A stretch of DNA of 62,206 nt, filler included, from Hausera hauseri (taxonomy: Eukaryota), in the NCBI GenBank assembly GCA_046269625.1. It is 10 parts of 10 records of this genome, joined end to end, with 100 filler letters (N's around TTAATTAATTAA, not from the genome) between each part and the next. Parts side by side here need not be neighbours in the genome. Positions count along the whole stretch, not along the records: positions 14,519 to 18,868 come from JBJURY010622886.1; 9 more parts are not named here. The stretch is one strand, 5' to 3'. The notes under the pieces were generated by a model. It searched no databases. It was not told where the DNA came from and saw only the letters and a program-made list of their open reading frames with translations. Below are positions 14,519 to 38,355 of the stretch, one piece after another; positions within the stretch are counted from its first letter, which is position 1; each line of letters opens with the position of its first letter. Position numbers and translations under genes: made by a program.

Positions 14519-15469
14519 TCCAGTCCAATCCGTTGGAATGTCATGGATGGAGTGGAGAATAAGGGGGTTTTGTCCGTGAGAGAGAGCGAATGAAGTTTTC
14601 CCAATATTAGCGGCCCCGAAAATGACGGCCGAATTTACCCCTAGTTCTGGTTCAAATCGAATAGGGGGCAAGAGAAATTCCTGATTGACCGGTTGATACT
14701 TTTCCCGGAACTTATTGCGCACGTATGATGTTAGCAGACGATGTCGAGTTATAAACTCAGATCTGTCGCATTCCTTCATCGTCTGGAGGGCCTCCTCAAC
14801 TGTCGGCGCCTCGTCGAACAGCTTATAGATGACCTTCTTGGAGGTATTTTCCCTCCAGACGTTAAATGGCTCCTTGCCAAATGCAGCGATAAGTGCACCA
14901 TCGAAGGTGTCCTTATGGTGAAATTGATACACCTAAAAAAATAATAATATTAATAAGCACACACACATACCTTCTGGATATCGGCGCGAAATGGAAGGAC
15001 GTGTGCTACAAGCACATTCCACATCGTAGATATCTTGTTGGGAGTCGGCGTATAAATGAGGACGTGCATGTGGTGAAAACCACTAGGTGCACGCTCCTCT
15101 TGAAGGCGAATATACCAGTGCTTTTTTAAATAGAGGCGCTGGTATTGGTCCAATCGGTACTCCGCATTAAACTGCTCGTCCAATTTATGGACTAACATAA
15201 AATGCCGGAACGTAGAATTTCTAGGGGGCATAGCAAGTGTTTTGACTGGTTCAGGGAATTTACTTTGGAGGGCCTCAAAAACCTCCGGAGGGAACTGATC
15301 CTCCTTAAACAGAGGCATGGGGTTCTCAGCATTAACAGTAATGTTTCGTTTGTATGATGTTCTACCGAAAAAAAATTAAACATCGAATAAAAATAAAATA
15401 AACCTACTCCGCGTTAGCTTTCACGGCGGGGGTTAATTTAATAACCCGATGCAAATTAAATTCATCCAT
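14519..15469 (-). CDS. rep: Spliced CRESS-like Rep, copy A (HUH endonuclease + SF3-helicase-like P-loop); exons 15469-15408, 15361-14971, 14932-contig end; 3' partial
   Basis: Motif II QEERAPSGFHHMHVLI and Walker A GAANIGKT. Motif III region VYQFHHKD. GT-AG introns of 46 and 38 nt give one continuous frame starting MDEFNLHRV. Confidence 0.88.
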
Positions 15470-16158
15470 TTTCAATAAATATATATTTAAAAGTTAAATA
15501 AAATTATGAGCCAGATTATAATATATATTTGAAATTGAGCTGGCTCAATTTTAAATAAGATTTTAACGGGGCACAAAAAATTCAAATTGATTCAACCAAT
15601 TACGCACACCAACAAGCGAACGGTTGATAATAACGTTACTAAGCAACCCGAGATAATGCACTAATTCACTGGCGCCTACAATATTGATTTATGTTATCGG
15701 CCGATACATATTAACAATGCGCGGAAAGTCAAGTGGCACTTGACTACCGCTGTAATTACCCGATGCTACTCGGACATTACATGCACCGGGTTTCCTTCAT
15801 ACAATGGACTGCCCGAGACACAATTAATACCGCACTTCAACACTACTAATGTAAATGGCCGAGACCCTATACGGCCGGTCTCGATACACTTAATATAGCC
15901 TTAAATCTGGTTAACATTAAAGTTCAAATATAGTCAGTTAGCTCAAAATAAAAATGAGCCAAATATTTAAATATCATTTATTTTATTATTATTTATTTAA
16001 TATTTTTAATTTATTTTATTATAATTATTATTATTATAATTCATATTTTTATTCTTATAATTTTTTTTTAAAACTTAAATTTTTTTCATTATTTTTTTTT
16101 TTTTAAAACTCTTAAATTTTTTTTAAGTTACTAAATTTATTGTTTATGTTCATTTTAG
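15470..16158. promoter_or_regulatory. Bidirectional control/origin-like region, copy A
   Basis: Palindromes at 15532-15551 and 15727-15745, plus a 28-mer at 15854-15881. All have collinear counterparts in copy B. Confidence 0.65.
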
Positions 16159-16629
16159 ATGGCTAACCAATCATATGCAGCAGCACTACTGAACTGGTAC
16201 AACCTTTTAGCAAAGAAAAGAATTGATGAGGACCTAAAACTTTATCGCAAATAATTTGAAAGGGTTCAAAACTTGGCTCATTCTTTTAATAGAATAATCG
16301 AGGAATCGATATTGAGAAATTGGGACGACACAGAAGCTCGGACCCGCCTGGACATGGCCCGGACTTCTTTGATAAATTGTGCTGAAGTCCGGGATAGGAT
16401 CCGGGAATATCTTAGACAATTGGAAGCTATGGAAGGCCAATGGGTCTTACCCTTCGATGGTGCGACCTATGCAGCTGACTCACCAGCACCCTTCTACGAG
16501 GCTTGGAAGGACCTCGACACACCTGCTCAGGTGAAATGGATCCGAGAAACCGAAGAAGACCTGAAGAACATGGCCAACATTGTGGATCATAACCTTTGGC
16601 CAAGGGTCGAAAACCTTTTTATCTTGTAG
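16159..16629 (+). CDS. Unknown ~156-aa Rep-partner protein (ORF X, copy A) with one internal TAA where copy B has Glu
   Basis: MANQSYAAALLNWYNLLAKKRIDEDLKLYRK*FERVQNL...ENLFIL is homologous to 17066-17293. TTTTAG lies directly before the ATG. Confidence 0.75.
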
Positions 16630-16736
16630 CTTGTTATATAATAAATTGATGTCTTGACTTTAGGTCTAAAGATGCCAACGGAGGTCCAAAGCCCTCGTGT
16701 AAATCTGATGGGACCTTTAACTTTATATTTAAAAAA

Positions 16737-16789
16737 AAAAGTAATTTGCTTTTAAGAGTCAAACGACTCTTAAAATCATTATTACTTTT
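16737..16789. repeat. Interrupted inverted repeat / hairpin downstream of ORF X
   Basis: AAAAGTAAT-n4-TTTTAAGAGTC-aaac-GACTCTTAAAA-n5-ATTACTTTT. Confidence 0.8.
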
Positions 16790-17065
16790 CTGATTTACTC
16801 AGAAATAAATCTGATATATTTTCAGAAATACTACTGAATACTACTGAAATACTACTGAACATATAGATTTCCCATCTTAACTACATTTCACGTACAAATT
16901 ACATATATTGCCTATACTTCTCCTAAATTACCTCCATATTACCCATATGCTACCATTATATTTTCCTATATTACTTATATATTCCCCACAATGTCTATAT
17001 ATTCCTCTCATCTTTCGCGAAAGAAAAATATTAGATGTATGCTGAATTGTAATATACCAGCTAAA

Positions 17066-17293
17066 CTATCTCAAGCAGAAGGTATCAAGCAGAGCCATTT
17101 CCATCCGGATCCTTGCCTGGGGGTCGTCCCAGTTCCGAAGAATACTCTCTTCAATAATTCCTCGGAAGCTGTTACCAAGGTTGGTGACCCTGTCAAGTTC
17201 TCGACGATACAACTTCAAATCCTCCTCAATACGTCTTTGGGCTAGAAGGTTATACCAGTTCAAAAGCGCACGAGCATAATTTCGGTTGGCCAT
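17066..17293 (-). pseudogene. ORF X copy B, 3'-truncated (homology lost near 17093)
   Basis: MANRNYARALLNWYNLLAQRRIEEDLKLYRRELDRVTNL..IIEESILRNWDD. Confidence 0.75.
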
Positions 17294-17912
17294 TATTTCT
17301 AAAATGAAAATAGAAATTAATTAGAGCCGCGAAAAAAATTTAAAAGTTATAAGGAAATAAAATAATAAAAGTAAAAGTTAAAAAATAATAAGTATAAAAA
17401 AATTAATGTAAAAAAATAAATAAAATAATAATAATAAATTAAAATATAAATTGAATTTAGGCCCGAAAATATTTTGAGCCACGTTGCAAATTTATTTCTT
17501 GCAGTTAACGCATTTTGAGCCAATATATTCATTGATTAGACCGGCCGTATAGGGTCTCGGCCATTGCATTGTCAATGTAAAGTCCGGTACACATGAAACC
17601 CGAGATAAGTAGTCTAATGTCAGCCGTCGCTCAAGTGCCACTTGACACGCTGACAATTAATTACACGTAGTGCCCGAGAGCAATTATCGATTAGCTGGTA
17701 GTTGCTAACTCTCGTGATTGTGTGCGTTGCTAGGCAACGTTAAAATCAGCCAAAATAATTTCAATGCGCATACCGACACACACACGGCTGATTCAAAATG
17801 TTATTTTTCTACCCAGACTTATTTATATAATTTTGAGCTAGCTCAATTTCAAATATAAGTTATAGCTAGACTCAATATTTTATTTGAAATTAAAAATATA
17901 AATTAAAGCGAA
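17294..17912. promoter_or_regulatory. Bidirectional control/origin-like region, copy B
   Basis: 28-mer at 17538-17565 (exact reverse complement of copy A); palindromes at 17631-17645 and 17833-17846. Confidence 0.65.
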
Positions 17913-18868
17913 ATGGAAGAAAATCATCTTGAAAGAACTGTGGTTTTACCCCCCCCCCAATGTTAAAACACACTTCTGAGTGAGATTTTGATTTAAATAT
18001 TTTATGAATATTTTTATTTTGCAGAACATCATACAAACGTAATGTTTTAATTGGTCCTGGATTAGAAACTCCATTGTTTAAAGAGGATCAATTCCCTCCG
18101 GAGGTTTTTGAGGCCCTCCAAAGTAAATTCACTGAACCGGTGAAATCTCTTGCCATGCCCCCTAGAAATTTTACCTTTCGTCATTTTATGCTTGTTCATA
18201 AGTTGGATCCTACTTATGATGCTGAATACAGATTGGATCAATATCAGCGCCTCTATATAAAAAAGCATTGGTATATTCGCCTTCAGGAGGAGCGTGCACC
18301 TAGTGGTTTTCACCACATGCACGTCCTCATCTATACTCCTACTCCAAACAAGATATCTACAATGTGGAATGTGCTTGGTGCACATGTTTTACCGTTTCGA
18401 GCGGATATCCAGAAGGTATGTGTGTGTGTGCTTAATATTATTATTATTTTTTAGGTGTATCAATATCACCATAAGGATACGTTCGATGAGGCAATTATTG
18501 CAGCTTTTGGCAAAGAGCCATTTAATGTCTGGAGGGAAAATACCTCAAAGAAGGTTATTTACAAGCTGTTCGATGAGGCGCCGACAGCTGAGGAGGCCCT
18601 TCAGACTATGAAAGAGTGCGACAGGTCTGAATTTATTACGAGACATCGTCTTCTTACTTCGTATGTGCGAAACAAGTTTCGGGAGAAGTACCAGCCTGTT
18701 AATCAAGAGTTTCTCTTATCTCCTATCAGATTTGAGCCAGAACTAGGCGTTAATTCAGCTGTAATTTTTGGAGCGGCCAATATTGGCAAAACTTCATTTG
18801 CCCTTTCTCATGGACGGAATCCACTTATTCTCCACTCAATCCATGACATTCCAACAGATTGGACAGGC
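17913..18868 (+). CDS. rep: Spliced CRESS-like Rep, copy B; exons 17913-17979, 18025-18415, 18455-contig end; 3' partial
   Basis: HHMHVLI, VYQYHHKD (YxxK) and GAANIGKT. Introns of 45 and 39 nt at the same positions as copy A. Exon 1 is out of frame by one base at the C10 run (17949-17958). Confidence 0.88.
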
Positions 18869-33419: not shown

Positions 33420-34372
33420 AAAATAAAGTCTTTTAGAGGACAATAATGTTGCGAGTTGTTTGGTACTGATATTTCGGTCTTGCTAAGACTTTCTTCAGAG
33501 TATGGCTATTTTGGTGTTGGTCTTCGTGAATGAGTCTATTTCTTTTGTTCTTTTCCTTTTTCTTTATTTTTATTGGTTCCTCAAAACAGTATGCTGTTTA
33601 TATCGCCGATTTCTTGTTTGATGTTCAGTTGGNNNNNNNNNNNNNNNNNNNNNNNNNNNNNNNNNNNNNNNNNNNNTTAATTAATTAANNNNNNNNNNNN
33701 NNNNNNNNNNNNNNNNNNNNNNNNNNNNNNNNCACAGCTGTGTAATGTCACATCCTTAGTAAATAAATATTTGTACCACATCATGAAAAGTCATGGTTTT
33801 ACAGAGAAACTACTCATTTGTAATCACGGCACTTATTTATTGTTTCAGAGCCAAATGTATGTGTTAATCTTTGATTTGGCCATCAAGTATAAAACATAAT
33901 GACAAAAAAATTACTTAGTTCTGGCAAGCCAGCGGCTGTCAAATAAATATTTAAAAATCACAGATAATGACGCTAGCGAAGTGGGAAAACGAAGAAATAT
34001 ATTTTTTTTTTTTTAAACTAACACAGTAAACAAACATACCAATAACTTATACAGCAAAATCAGCGGCATCACGCAAATGAAAACTGGCAGGAAATAATTA
34101 ACAACATTAACAAAATATTACAACAGATTAAACACAAATCTACACAAATATTTGGTAGCGGAATAATTAACACATTTATAAGCTCTAAAGTAATATACAC
34201 ATCAAACATTTAATTTACCACCTCTTCCTTGTAGCATTAATAGTGTGGAAAATTCTGGAATGGTATATTACATAAATATGCACTTCAAGTACAAAAGGAA
34301 ATTAAAAAAAGATACGTTGGTAAACAAGCAAGAAAGACACACTGGTAAATTTTAAATCCAGCTCTGCTCAAC

Positions 34373-34445
34373 GGTCTTCTGTGGCTCAGTGGTTAGGATG
34401 CTCGCCTTGGAATCCGATGGTAGAGGGTTCGAAACCACGCAGAAT
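34373..34445 (+). mobile_element. tRNA-derived SINE head
   Basis: A box TGGCTCAGTGG and B box GGTTCGAAACC, without a complete cloverleaf. Confidence 0.65.
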
Positions 34446-34479
34446 CCCACTCACGATGAACTGCCCATCTGCTGTGAGT

Positions 34480-35480
34480 TTTAGTGGGGAGGCCATTGAA
34501 ACGTTGGCGGCTCTTGTCGACGCCTCTATGCACCACACGGTGTAAGGGACTTTCACTCACTATATCTCTGATGAGAAGGTCAATTTTCTTAACATCACTG
34601 TCTCCACCAAACCCTCGATTCTCTCGACCATTGTCTCCTGTGAACCCAGTGATGCCCACAGCAACCTGATTCTTATCACCTCTCGCCCTGTTTGAACTCC
34701 CTGCTTTACTCTCAGTTCCTTCGTCTTCGCCGCATCTGCCAAGACGAAGAGCTCACGAAATGTTGGACTTTTTCCGCAGTAGACTCTAGCCGAAACGTAT
34801 TCTCACCTTCATTCTAGAGTGTGTCCTCCCCATTTCAATGGAAGCTGCCCTCACACCACAGCATAAGGACCCGCCAATAGGGTTAAGCTAGTTTTAGCCT
34901 GCTGCCCCCACAGCGTCCTTGTCAAGCGCATCCCGTTCCGTCATTTGTTCTCCGTAGCTCTCTTCCCTTAACGTGCAAGGTCTTCCCAGACACCCCTTTT
35001 TGTTGCATACAGGCGCAACAAAAATCAGAAACCTCCTGATCCACTGCCGATTCAGGAGGACAGTTCCTGGACAACAGGGAATCGTGGCATGTGGTAGGTC
35101 CAATGCTACACATGCCCGTGTTTCTGACACAGTCCATGTCTTTCCCTAATGGCAAATACACAATGAGGGATAGCTTCTCTTGCACGTCACGCGACGTTAT
35201 TTATACTACCCGTCGCTAGCGATGCGGCAAGTGCTATGTGGGCCAGACGGGTCGTCAACTAGGAGACCGCTTCTGTGAGTACCTTAGGGACATCGAGAAT
35301 GAGAGTGACACACCCTTCGCCAAGCGTTTCAACAGCCCCAACCTCCACGGTGTGTCTGAAGTTGAAGTCACGGCCATCAGATTCTGTCTAACACCAGGTC
35401 CCGCCTCGCTTTTGAGAACCAGTTGATTTTTCCTTTGGGTGTGATCCAGCCGGTCGATTTGAATACAGTCAATTCTTTTG
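34480..35480 (+). mobile_element. Penelope-like retroelement 3' fragment (RT thumb + GIY-YIG endonuclease), degenerate
   Basis: ISDEKVNFL, YSQFLRLRRIC, a Cys linker and YVGQTGRQLGDRFCEYLRDI. Confidence 0.85.
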
Positions 35481-36093
35481 ACTGACCAAGCCTCCCTAGA
35501 TTCTTTCTTTCCCCATGTCGTCTTCTCTGCTCTTCTCCTTTAACCCCTATTGGTATTTTCCTCTCGGTCTCTCCACCCTGCCCTTAGGTCCCATGCCCTT
35601 CTTCTCCCTTTCCCAACTCTCCTGAGTATAGTGTCCCTCCTTGTCTTCCTTTTTCGCCTTTTTATTCCGATCATTGCCCCGTCCTTCTAGTCCCCTCCCT
35701 TCCATCTTGTCTCACATGTCTATCTCCACGGTCCATTGGTGATTGGCAGAGGTCACTATTTCCATCCAGTCGTATCTCTTGACCATGCGTCTGTACTACT
35801 TCCGCCAGCGCCAATTTTGATTGTATGCGGTATCTGTATTTTTCAGTCATGAATCAGGATCGCAACATCAGATAAGATTGTTTCATCTATTGTAATTAGA
35901 TCATTTAATGTAATTTTATTATGTTTCATATATTTTATTTGATGTTAGTTTATTGTCAGTGTACTTCTGCTTGATTTTTGCTACCTCTATCTGCCTTTCC
36001 ATCCTATATACTATTATACCACGTGACTCTTTCCTACGCCCCCGATGAAGTTGTAGTGTGTGTTGCCTGTAAAGTTTTCTGTTTTAGATGTAC

Positions 36094-36120
36094 CTAACGA
36101 AGACCTTGTTGGTCGTAACG
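36094..36120 (+). ncRNA. Degenerate minimal hammerhead ribozyme core in the Penelope 3' region
   Basis: CT(A)ACGA-A-GACC-ttgtt-GGTC-G(T)AAC versus CTGANGA-stem II-GAAAC; two core mismatches. Confidence 0.45.
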
Positions 36121-36719
36121 TAGTCGGTTTTGTCTTTTTTCGCCATTCTCGAAAGACTCCACTACCCATTTTTTTAATTTTTTTTTCACTATTCCACAGC
36201 TCTATGTGAGTCACTCTAGGCAACCCTACCTTCATGAAGCCCGTCGCTGACTCTTGGTGCCCCCCGTTAGGAAGTGACAGGGCTCTGCCGACTCGTTCTG
36301 TACTCGAGTATGGTGAGGTGAAAGGTTTAGGAGATGGCTCAGTTAGATTTCCAGGCCACGGCATCAGATAAACTGACGAAGTTGCGAAAAAGATCAGATC
36401 TTGGTCTTATGTTTACAGTTTCATCGTTGCTTGTTAAGCACAGGCAGTGTTTTAATTGAAAGAATGTTTATAAATAGGGTGGCATTATTTTATTCAGTAT
36501 TTGATAGACGTATCGTGATAGTAGAAGAAGTTTTTGACAAAGAGAATATTTAGTAAGGAAAACATTTGTGTGCTTTCTGGGCTTCTATCTAAGCCAGTCA
36601 GAAGCATTATTCTCTTGGACAGATTCAAGCCTCATCAAGGCAGTAGAATTACCACGAATCCAAACACTGGAGCAACAGAAGAGGTGACTTTCTATATGCA
36701 CATGGTAAAATGCTAATCT

Positions 36720-37050
36720 AGAGTTAAGACAGTGTTTAATTTTGAATAACTGGTAAACGTTCTGAGCGATTTTCTTTGCCGTGAAGAAGATATGTGGCTC
36801 CCAGCTTAAAGACTGGAAGATCTCTGATAATGAGTGCTTGAATGCTCAATATGTTCTCCTTCCAATATAACAGACAGTTCGGTATTCTGGCAGTTTTTAA
36901 GTTTTTATTGCCCAGTAGATACTATTAACGATTTAGTCTTGGCGATATTGATGGACATTTTGTTATGTGATATCGTAGAAGAGACTCTACAGAGTGCATG
37001 TATGAGCTAGCGACTGTCAGAGTTGTATCGTCGGCAAACATAAGGGTCTT
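36720..37050 (-). mobile_element. CR1/L2-type LINE RT remnant
   Basis: Reverse strand reads TLMFADDTT at ~37022-37047. Confidence 0.5.
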
Positions 37051-38323
37051 CACCCAAGGACAGATGATGAAACTGACAAGCAAGTGCGGCAGAAAAGCCT
37101 AGACAGTGCTGGAGACGGCGCTGTTTGGGTGACGGGCATTACTCGATCCTATGTCTCAGACGCAATAAACTGCCGTGCAACGGAAAGGCCAGACCCCTGA
37201 AATGAAGCCGCTTGACTTGCCTAGCACTTCGGGAACACGCACATCACGGGGTGAATCTGTCCGAACGCTAAGAGAGAGGAGCGGTTTTTTAAGTTAATTT
37301 TTCATCTCCTCATACAAGTGCTGCTGTTTCAAGCGTTTCAATTTTCCTGCCAGGATGGTGAATTGCGTGTCAATGTCTTTTGTCTTCTAGTTTGTCGAAT
37401 ACTGATGTATCGAATGTTGCAATGTTTCCACATAGAGGTTATCTCCGTGCTGCAAGCTTTCGTCTGTCACAAACATCCATGATAAACTCATTCATTGATC
37501 GTTTTTCAGATATCTTTAAATCTCGTCTTTGTCACATCTGACAATTCGCCAAGTCTGGGAATGCGACTGTCCTTCATTCTACATATCCGAACCATCTGGC
37601 TTCTATTGCGAAAATGGATAAGAAAAACGATCAGGCGGGTAGACAGGACACGTCCTTAGGAAGCAGTCGGACTGCTATGTTATGGACACCAAAGAGAAGA
37701 AAAATAGAATGTCCGAACAGTGGAGACAAAGAGGTGAACGATATGAATCACAGCTGGGGTACTATATAAAGGCTTGATGCAGACCGAGAGAGGAGGTGAA
37801 CGTTTGTTGCTGCCCTTAAGACGCCACAAGGCGTGATGGATGGTGACTGCTTTGGTGGTTTTCACCCAAGGAGAGTTGATGAAACTGACATGTAAGTGTC
37901 ACAGAAACAGTGCTGTAAAATAGTAACCAGGGGAAATAACCTGTTTAGATAACAATGCATTTTAGAGTTGAATCCCTTGCAGAAAGGAGCACCACTGAAC
38001 AAATCTTTAATCTAAGGATAGTGAGCGAGAAATATCAGCAACAGCAACAAGACATGCTATACGTCTTCATAGACTACAACAAGAGCCAGCAAGAAGAGGT
38101 TTGTATATAACGAGGAAAAAGATATGAAAGAAAAGCTACTAATCATGCTCGGTCCTATATTGCAACAAAGATCGTGCACTGAGCTGTTCTCCTCGAGAAT
38201 GGTGGTAACCAATTACCCCAGATCTTCTCTTCTTAAAACATTACCAAACATAGGTCGTTGCTCTTTTTAATCTTAGTGATAAGTTAACTTTCTGCATCTA
38301 GTCAAATGTTTGTGACTTGAGTC

Positions 38324-38355
38324 ACTTTATCATAGCCAAAAGGCCGGGAAGCCAT
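38324..38355 (-). ncRNA. U2 snRNA 5'-end fragment inside a repeat
   Basis: Reverse complement resembles ATCGCTTCTCGGCCTTTTGGCTAAGATCAAGT. Confidence 0.65.

Follow-up and report, generated by a model that had tools for sequence, protein, structure and literature searches.

The window, the whole stretch of DNA analysed (62,206 nt), consists of ten contigs of ten records with N spacers between them, and the finding reported here is confined to the contig at positions 14519-18868. This contig of 4,350 nt carries two inverted copies of one element, which show ~80% identity over the Rep side. In each copy the Rep gene points outwards and a second gene, ORF2, points inwards, and the two are transcribed divergently. 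Element sequence reaches both contig ends, and the unassigned junction is only 466 nt. Neither terminal repeats nor host flanks are visible in the 4,350-nt contig, and no capsid gene was seen in it; such a gene could lie beyond its ends. Both contig ends (14519 and 18868) fall at the same Rep codon, after DWTG, with the last base differing between the copies, and the sequence past both ends may be shared or an intron may start there. The other contigs of the window have no physical link to this one, and carry what we take to be LTR-retrotransposon-like and other eukaryotic-looking ORFs. The neighbouring contig (10134-14418), with its dense short ORFs on the same strand (ankyrin, cysteine-rich, membrane anchor), resembles a piece of a large DNA virus, and at 33733-46829 there are duplicated blocks ~5 kb apart with a degenerate repeat array (50-125 nt) at 40464-41300.

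Copy 1 of Rep (14519-15469, minus strand; exons 15469-15408, 15361-14971, and 14932-14519) and copy 2 (17913-18868, plus strand; exons 17913-17979, 18025-18415, and 18455-18868) are both cut by the contig end. Each is interrupted by two GT-AG introns, of 46 and 38 nt in copy 1 and of 45 and 39 nt in copy 2. A reassigned stop codon, and with it a reassigned genetic code, is excluded by the unequal lengths of intron 2 (38 and 39 nt). Intron 2 (14933-14970 and 18416-18454) is nearly identical between the copies, whereas intron 1 has diverged. Intron 2 also contains TAATATTAT, which was rejected as an origin because it has no stem. Among the HUH motifs, motif II (HHMH) is found in both copies and motif III (YHHK) in copy 2, while motif I is degenerate and lacks the threonine of the usual form (as given in the available text of PMC8780604). 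Walker A reads GAANIGKT. Each copy has lesions, which suggest that these are decayed element copies: copy 1 lacks the tyrosine of motif III and has a stop at ORF2 codon 32, and in copy 2 the first Rep ATG is out of frame with exon 2, an in-frame ATG following downstream at 17960, and ORF2 is decayed. The copies nevertheless differ at 60 synonymous and only 6 nonsynonymous codons in exon 3, and 46 of the 95 fourfold sites of exons 2-3 differ; from this synonymous excess it follows that the Rep copies diverged as functional genes under purifying selection.

The geminivirus Rep matches in Pfam were sub-threshold (Gemini_AL1 at E 0.018, below the curated cut-off). A profile built from 20 environmental Reps matches solved circo-, nano-, and geminivirus Reps; run on the 1541 six-frame fragments of the window, it ranked the four Rep exon fragments first, exon 3 scoring E about 1e-13 and exon 2 weakly (E 0.14-0.18). 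The match of E 1e-13 covers the central domain and Walker A of the putative SF3 helicase part; the contig stops at either end before reaching the positions of Walker B and motif C. Judging from its sequence, Rep appears to be a CRESS-type HUH-oligomerisation-SF3 protein.

Rep is very isolated among 1.84 billion representatives, since a search of these at E up to 0.001 returned three proteins, namely two Reps and one spurious match (P0002, an FG-GAP repeat protein that had matched the read-through intron). From the two true matches a set of 26 environmental Reps was reached, the best of which has 34% identity to the window Reps over 104 aa. Exon 2 had no BLASTP match among 27 proteins at E 0.05. 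A tree of 28 rows, from which P0002 and P0028 were omitted, places the window pair in an unresolved polytomy, with a long branch of 2.33 changes per column. Neither exon 3 against longer proteins (0 of 158 candidates) nor tblastn against plasmids gave a match, the PDB searched by single sequence gave nothing meaningful, and a Rep-family scan of GTDB confirmed 0 of 20 candidates. The environmental Rep P0006 had no match among phages, and weakly matched 11 phytoplasma plasmid Reps.

ORF2 of copy 1 (16159-16629, plus strand) has 156 codons with the internal stop noted above; that of copy 2 (17043-17293, minus strand) shows 70% identity to it over 66 codons and then decays by small deletions. The ORF2 product is predicted to be all-helical with low confidence (pLDDT 57), and no homologue was found: there was no useful Pfam or PHROGs match, a separate search confirmed 0 of 114 candidates, matches in the Atlas were at noise level only, and the best Foldseek match of the low-confidence model had E 0.28. 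By these searches ORF2 is an orphan. In both copies a very AT-rich tract (~15965-16158 and 17294-17450) ends in TTCATTTTAG at the ORF2 ATG or 5 nt before it, which could be a 5' UTR intron acceptor or a trans-splice acceptor.

The preliminary description drew attention to a 28-mer said to be identical in both copies amid otherwise diverged intergenic DNA, and both parts of this hold. The 28-mer is exact at 15854-15881 (plus strand) and 17538-17565, where it lies on the minus strand since the copies are inverted, and no other site occurs in the window at up to 3 mismatches. It is the longest conserved intergenic block and lies between the two divergent genes; longer identical runs (39 and 44 nt) are found inside Rep exon 2. 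The spacers between conserved islands show 61-80% apparent identity, compared with 61-65% when shuffled, and two of three score above all 300 shuffles, so the intergenic region is homologous and largely diverged. When the intergenic cores were shuffled, none of 500 trials gave a common word longer than 14 nt, half the 28 nt observed. An identical run of 28 nt was not seen in 20,000 simulations at the identity of fourfold sites (0.52), and had P=0.0014 at identity 0.67 and 0.025 at identity 0.74. The 28-mer is a real, non-random footprint. Its distance to the Rep ATG is 385 nt in copy 1 and 348 nt in copy 2; that it is not equidistant is largely due to a 46-nt insertion found in copy 1 only (15807-15852, plus strand), which resembles a decayed copy of the 28-mer (P=0.0035, 2000 shuffles) and contains one CCCGAGA.

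The two mutually exclusive hairpins proposed for the 28-mer do form. It is built in the order AAT, A (15857-61), B (15862-66), CTATA (15867-71), A' (15872-76), and B' (15877-81), in which either A pairs with A' (GGCCG/CGGCC) or B with B' (AGACC/GGTCT, a stem of 5 bp in copy 2 that is lengthened to 7 bp in copy 1). The loop measures 10 nt in either fold, and CTATA is unpaired in both; a full pseudoknot was rejected because its two connecting loops would be 0 nt. Two alternative stems of at least 5 bp arise in only 0.7% of 20,000 composition shuffles. The eight bases that pair in neither stem (AAT and CTATA) are invariant as well, which counts for an origin. Against an origin counts the rank of the stems, 20th among the non-overlapping 40-nt windows of the contig. 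The hairpins are weak, with estimates of about -5.6 to -6.6 kcal/mol; for the folds at -5.6 to -6.1 kcal/mol, 8, 21, and 11 of 200 shuffles did as well (z -1.2 to -2.0). Their stems of 5-7 bp compare with inverted repeats of 10-30 nt described for ssDNA-virus origins (PMC3187698, available text). Identity between the copies is 65/73 and 57/60 at stem positions, compared with 218/322 and 226/335 outside stems, which again speaks for an origin. Since the 28-mer copies are identical, covariation is absent.

According to PMC9973303 (available text), Reps need the bases at -4 and +1 of the nick to form a Watson-Crick pair. CTAT^AC in the 28-mer has -4C/+1A and breaks this rule. On the opposite strand, ATAGGGT^CT satisfies the rule; it has T at -1, and its end coincides with the 3' end of the loop. 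Because 8 of 48 positions in the 28-mer pass the rule, no more than chance, ATAGGGT^CT is the outcome of a filter that ranks candidates and is not evidence for a nick there.

As the preliminary description had noted, a canonical nonanucleotide is absent from the intergenic loops: there is no TANTATTAC in the contig, none lies at an intergenic stem-loop apex in either copy, and none is common to both intergenic regions. None of the 12 matches to Ori-Seek terms in the contig is in the intergenic region of copy 1, and the one well inside that of copy 2 (17754) has no counterpart in copy 1. A literature search for the loop 8-mer together with 'nonanucleotide' found nothing.

Two palindromes flank this region on the Rep side, and the equivalent distances reported for them were confirmed. 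TTGAGC-NN-GCTCAA (15524-15548 and 17833-17857; an 18-nt identical block) lies 66 and 67 nt from the Rep ATG, and TCAAGTG-N-CACTTGA (15728-15743 and 17631-17646; a 16-nt identical block, the arms extending to 9 bp in copy 1) lies 260 and 268 nt from it. At identity 0.67 neither island reaches significance by itself (P 0.10 for the 18-nt and 0.22 for the 16-nt block). With spacers of 1-2 nt, both dyads look like double-stranded protein-binding sites, comparable to geminivirus promoter footprints (PMC6344024, available text), and the TTGAGC block is likely to be a promoter or Rep-binding site. TGAGC occurs 5 times in each region, compared with 0.4 and 0.6 expected, a count that 0 of 1000 shuffles reach in either; CCCGAGA is enriched at 2 copies in each; and CCGAGA occurs 3 times per region, once inside the 28-mer, well above shuffles. 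All three motifs were chosen post hoc. The positions of TGAGC/GCTCA are largely conserved between the copies, with clusters upstream of Rep as well as of ORF2; copy 1 carries GCTCAAAATA with TGAGC motifs on its ORF2 side (15939-15959, plus strand), and copy 2 has GCTCAAAAT twice (TGAGC of the window at 17475 and 17516). The suggestion that these motifs recur like iterons is therefore not established: they are enriched, but CCCGAGA is at non-homologous positions and in opposite element orientation. The arrangement of iterons is described as conserved (PMC10653810, available text), and we count this flip against an origin. A 12-nt word, AACCCGAGATAA, is likewise found at non-homologous positions and in opposite element orientation (15645-15656 and 17597-17608).

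The strongest hairpin of the contig lies elsewhere, in a 44-nt identical block of Rep exon 2 over motif II (18287-18330; about 15056-15099 in copy 1). It folds at -13 to -14 kcal/mol (z -5 to -6), which none of 2000 synonymous nulls equals, and on the antisense strand its loop reads GAAA. The identical runs of exon 2 (39 and 44 nt) exceed a codon-position model (second-longest run at least 39 nt, P 0.003). This hairpin is possibly a single-strand origin, a packaging signal, or an RNA signal, and it points to selection on single-stranded structure in the element. Because it is stronger than the 28-mer and equally invariant, an origin cannot be recognised by an invariant hairpin alone. The idea that folding and identity go together all along Rep was rejected (Spearman -0.04, P 0.61).

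Downstream of ORF2 copy 1 there is a long AT-rich hairpin (16737-16789) with an 11-bp perfect core (16750-16775), and just 3' of this core is a canonical CATTATTAC (16777-16785). Together they are a candidate for a rival origin or an element end. CATTATTAC sits in a stem arm of the best fold, and the region around 16777 is absent from copy 2. The hairpin cluster (z -5.2) is followed within 16737-16859 by three tandem AATACTACTG units; their minus strand gives TAGTATT, which resembles the 5' part of a canonical nonamer. Beyond it (16865-17012) is a G-poor degenerate array with 9-11 nt periodicity and 5 G in 148 nt, in which ATATTAC occurs twice and CCTATAC once; the latter, at 16911, was rejected as a second origin, since this 7-mer occurs just once among degenerate repeats.

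The analysis shows that the sequence is conserved and able to fold, which domains Rep has, and how the genes are laid out, and the following reading builds on this. The element may be a divergent CRESS-type rolling-circle replicon, present here as two damaged, inverted family members. We give about an even chance to the reading in which the region between Rep and ORF2 would serve both as origin and as bidirectional promoter, and the 28-mer would be the hairpin that is nicked, in a non-canonical manner. The adjoining CRESS-type Rep and the position of the 28-mer, as the longest block between divergent genes, argue for an origin or promoter region. Ambisense CRESS origins usually lie between divergent genes.

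By analogy with the iteron-binding, melting, and nicking model of Rep (PMC10653810, available text), we infer binding, melting, nicking, the strand, and the assignment of proteins to dyads. Rep would bind the double-stranded repeats of the TGAGC/GCTCAA and CCGAGA families and melt the GC-rich 28-mer, which would then adopt one of its two short hairpins. A nick would follow in or beside the CTATA/TATAG core, for which two positions lead: the Rep-sense strand could be cut at ATAGGGT^CT, between 15864 and 15863, or the ORF2-sense strand at CTAT^AC, between 15870 and 15871. For the TCAAGTG and TTGAGC dyads a nicked loop is less likely than a duplex site bound by a dimeric protein, be it a host factor, Rep, or ORF2. 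Against the putative non-canonical nick site of the earlier proposal count the short stems, the failure of T^AC at -4/+1, and the canonical nonamer at 16777-16785.

The alternative offered in the same proposal, conserved promoter elements, is a strong rival, which we consider possible rather than probable. It holds that every conserved block, even the 28-mer, is a promoter or enhancer site of a divergent Rep/ORF2 transcription unit, and that the origin is at CATTATTAC and its 11-bp hairpin or past the truncated 3' ends of Rep. GCTCAA clusters upstream of both genes in both copies, the two dyads with their 1-2 nt spacers look like duplex binding sites, and dyad-symmetric promoter footprints of similar size are described in geminiviruses (PMC6344024, available text). 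The flipped 12-nt word at non-homologous sites is in the style of binding-site turnover (23 of 1000 shuffles reach at least 12 nt). Yet an unbroken invariant stretch of 28 bases, in which two stems overlap, is long for a site that a single factor binds. As for the origin at CATTATTAC, this match alone among the 12 to Ori-Seek terms has the cognate -4T/+1A pair, and the hairpin cluster with z -5.2 adjoins it; on the other hand, about one NANTATTAC is expected per contig of this size, 20 others occur in the rest of the window, and both the stem-arm position of CATTATTAC and the lack of this region in copy 2 weigh against it. TATTAC is found 4 times in the 466-nt junction compared with 0.7 expected (P 0.003), although one of the four is in decayed ORF2 and seven other 6-mers of the junction, which is repetitive, rank as high or higher.

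A bolder reading, which we regard as unlikely, is that the copies belong to an undescribed family of host-adapted, capsid-less, multi-intron HUH-SF3 replicons (a eukaryotic nuclear plasmid or rolling-circle transposon) that would have a bistable double-hairpin origin, a Rep with new specificity, and an accessory ORF2. The invariant CTATA core would then be presented in two alternative folds, for example for initiation versus termination, and the dyads might be read by ORF2, as an accessory protein for DNA binding or partition.

It is improbable, in our judgment, that the element is an HUH transposon, or a cassette in a larger DNA element, nicked at its ends or at the Rep-internal hairpin, with the intergenic motifs serving as expression signals only. 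Multiple short spliceosomal introns, the lack of a capsid gene in the contig, and clustered diverged copies with lesions would suit such an element. Replitron-1 has two introns (PMC10288648) and geminivirus-like Rep repeats are reported in fungal genomes (PMC3198968), according to the available texts. The exon 2 hairpin is invariant over 44 nt and unmatched by synonymous nulls, but its loop is only 4 nt. Terminal repeats and host flanks are not visible, and Replitrons, as described in the available text of PMC10288648, are without a helicase, whereas the Rep of this element has Walker A.

We likewise give little weight to the idea that the islands are kept by mechanism and not by function (hairpin mutation resistance, self-correction by template switching, or recent gene conversion between the inverted copies): the excess of the 39- and 44-nt exon 2 runs over the codon-position model (P 0.003), the near identity of intron 2 and not of intron 1, the contig ends at the same Rep codon, as if the sequence past them were shared, and the palindrome self-repair ('melting pot') described at circovirus origins (PMC3187698, available text) speak for it, but conversion would not favour dyads, one of which is contained in each of the three longest intergenic islands, the unpaired bases of the 28-mer are invariant too, and palindrome self-repair is itself described as a property of origins.

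No third copy of the element was found in the window, plasmids, phages, or GTDB genomes. With the two-copy profile, nhmmer gave only self and palindrome matches plus one at E 8.4; blastn of the intergenic core gave three AT-rich chance matches in plasmids and none in phages; the 24-nt core had no match in GTDB genomes; and Rfam gave a chance mir-548 match only. The literature search, with most subscription journals outside its reach, found nothing describing either the element or the loop.

According to the available text of PMC9973303, the finding of CRESS origins relies almost only on the canonical nonanucleotide, and no canonical prediction was obtained in 4,169 of 25,735 CRESS genomes, about one in six. 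The two-copy footprint offers a candidate, short enough to be ordered, for a Rep that would cut at another sequence; if this is true, it would test the -4/+1 pairing rule outside known families and could give an orthogonal HUH tag. The element that carries it is unusual as well, since its Rep is very isolated and interrupted by several short spliceosomal introns and its partner gene is an orphan; this bears on the passage from ssDNA virus to resident plasmid or transposon. If the blocks are promoter sites only, the finding is a modest one.

The geminivirus and circovirus ambisense origin is alike in that Rep, here apparently of the HUH-OD-SF3 type too, is divergent from a second gene, and that short repeats and a GC-rich hairpin block, which is conserved, lie between the 5' ends of the two genes. 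In geminiviruses the origin stem-loop is highly conserved in intergenic regions, and iterons lie upstream or on both sides (PMC10653810, available text). The present element differs in that its copies have no NANTATTAC-type loop in common, its stems measure only 5-7 bp and its two folds exclude each other, its second gene is not a jelly-roll capsid (by the low-confidence prediction for ORF2), and its Rep has at least two short GT-AG introns. It would function like an ambisense CRESS intergenic region while lacking the canonical nonamer. Since neither this nonamer nor a capsid or circle was shown, we do not place the element in a virus family, and the available parts of PMC6668415 and PMC8780604 allow no group assignment of Rep.

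The environmental Reps P0001 and P0003-P0028, which we take to be CRESSV6-like, are of the GKTxFALxHFxxPLLV...DGIVFDDM helicase type and share the central domain and Walker A region with the window Reps; these differ from them by their long branch and by an exon 2 that has no BLASTP match. Replitrons and Helitrons share a eukaryotic, intron-containing HUH gene and hairpins. The helicase of Helitrons is of the SF1 type. In the text available (PMC10288648), Replitrons have no helicase and short terminal direct repeats, and Helitrons have a Y2 Rep with a fused helicase, whereas the Rep described here is Y1 with an SF3-type Walker A and central region, at odds with the absence of a fused helicase that marks Replitrons.

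HthCRESSV1 (PMC13499601) also combines a Rep with a hypothetical protein, and its proposed loop, TGGCAGTGT, is a precedent for non-canonical origins. It differs in its same-direction genes, mitochondrial location, and other loop, and the word 'intron' is absent from the available part of that paper. Rep proteins have reportedly also been captured by poxviruses. Intron-interrupted Reps and capsid-less 'circular molecules' (PMC6186406), as well as endogenous and transposon-like Reps (PMC3198968), are already reported in the available texts. Non-canonical origins had been proposed and intron-bearing Reps reported before; what appears to be new is an isolated, intron-bearing CRESS-like element with a 28-mer footprint.
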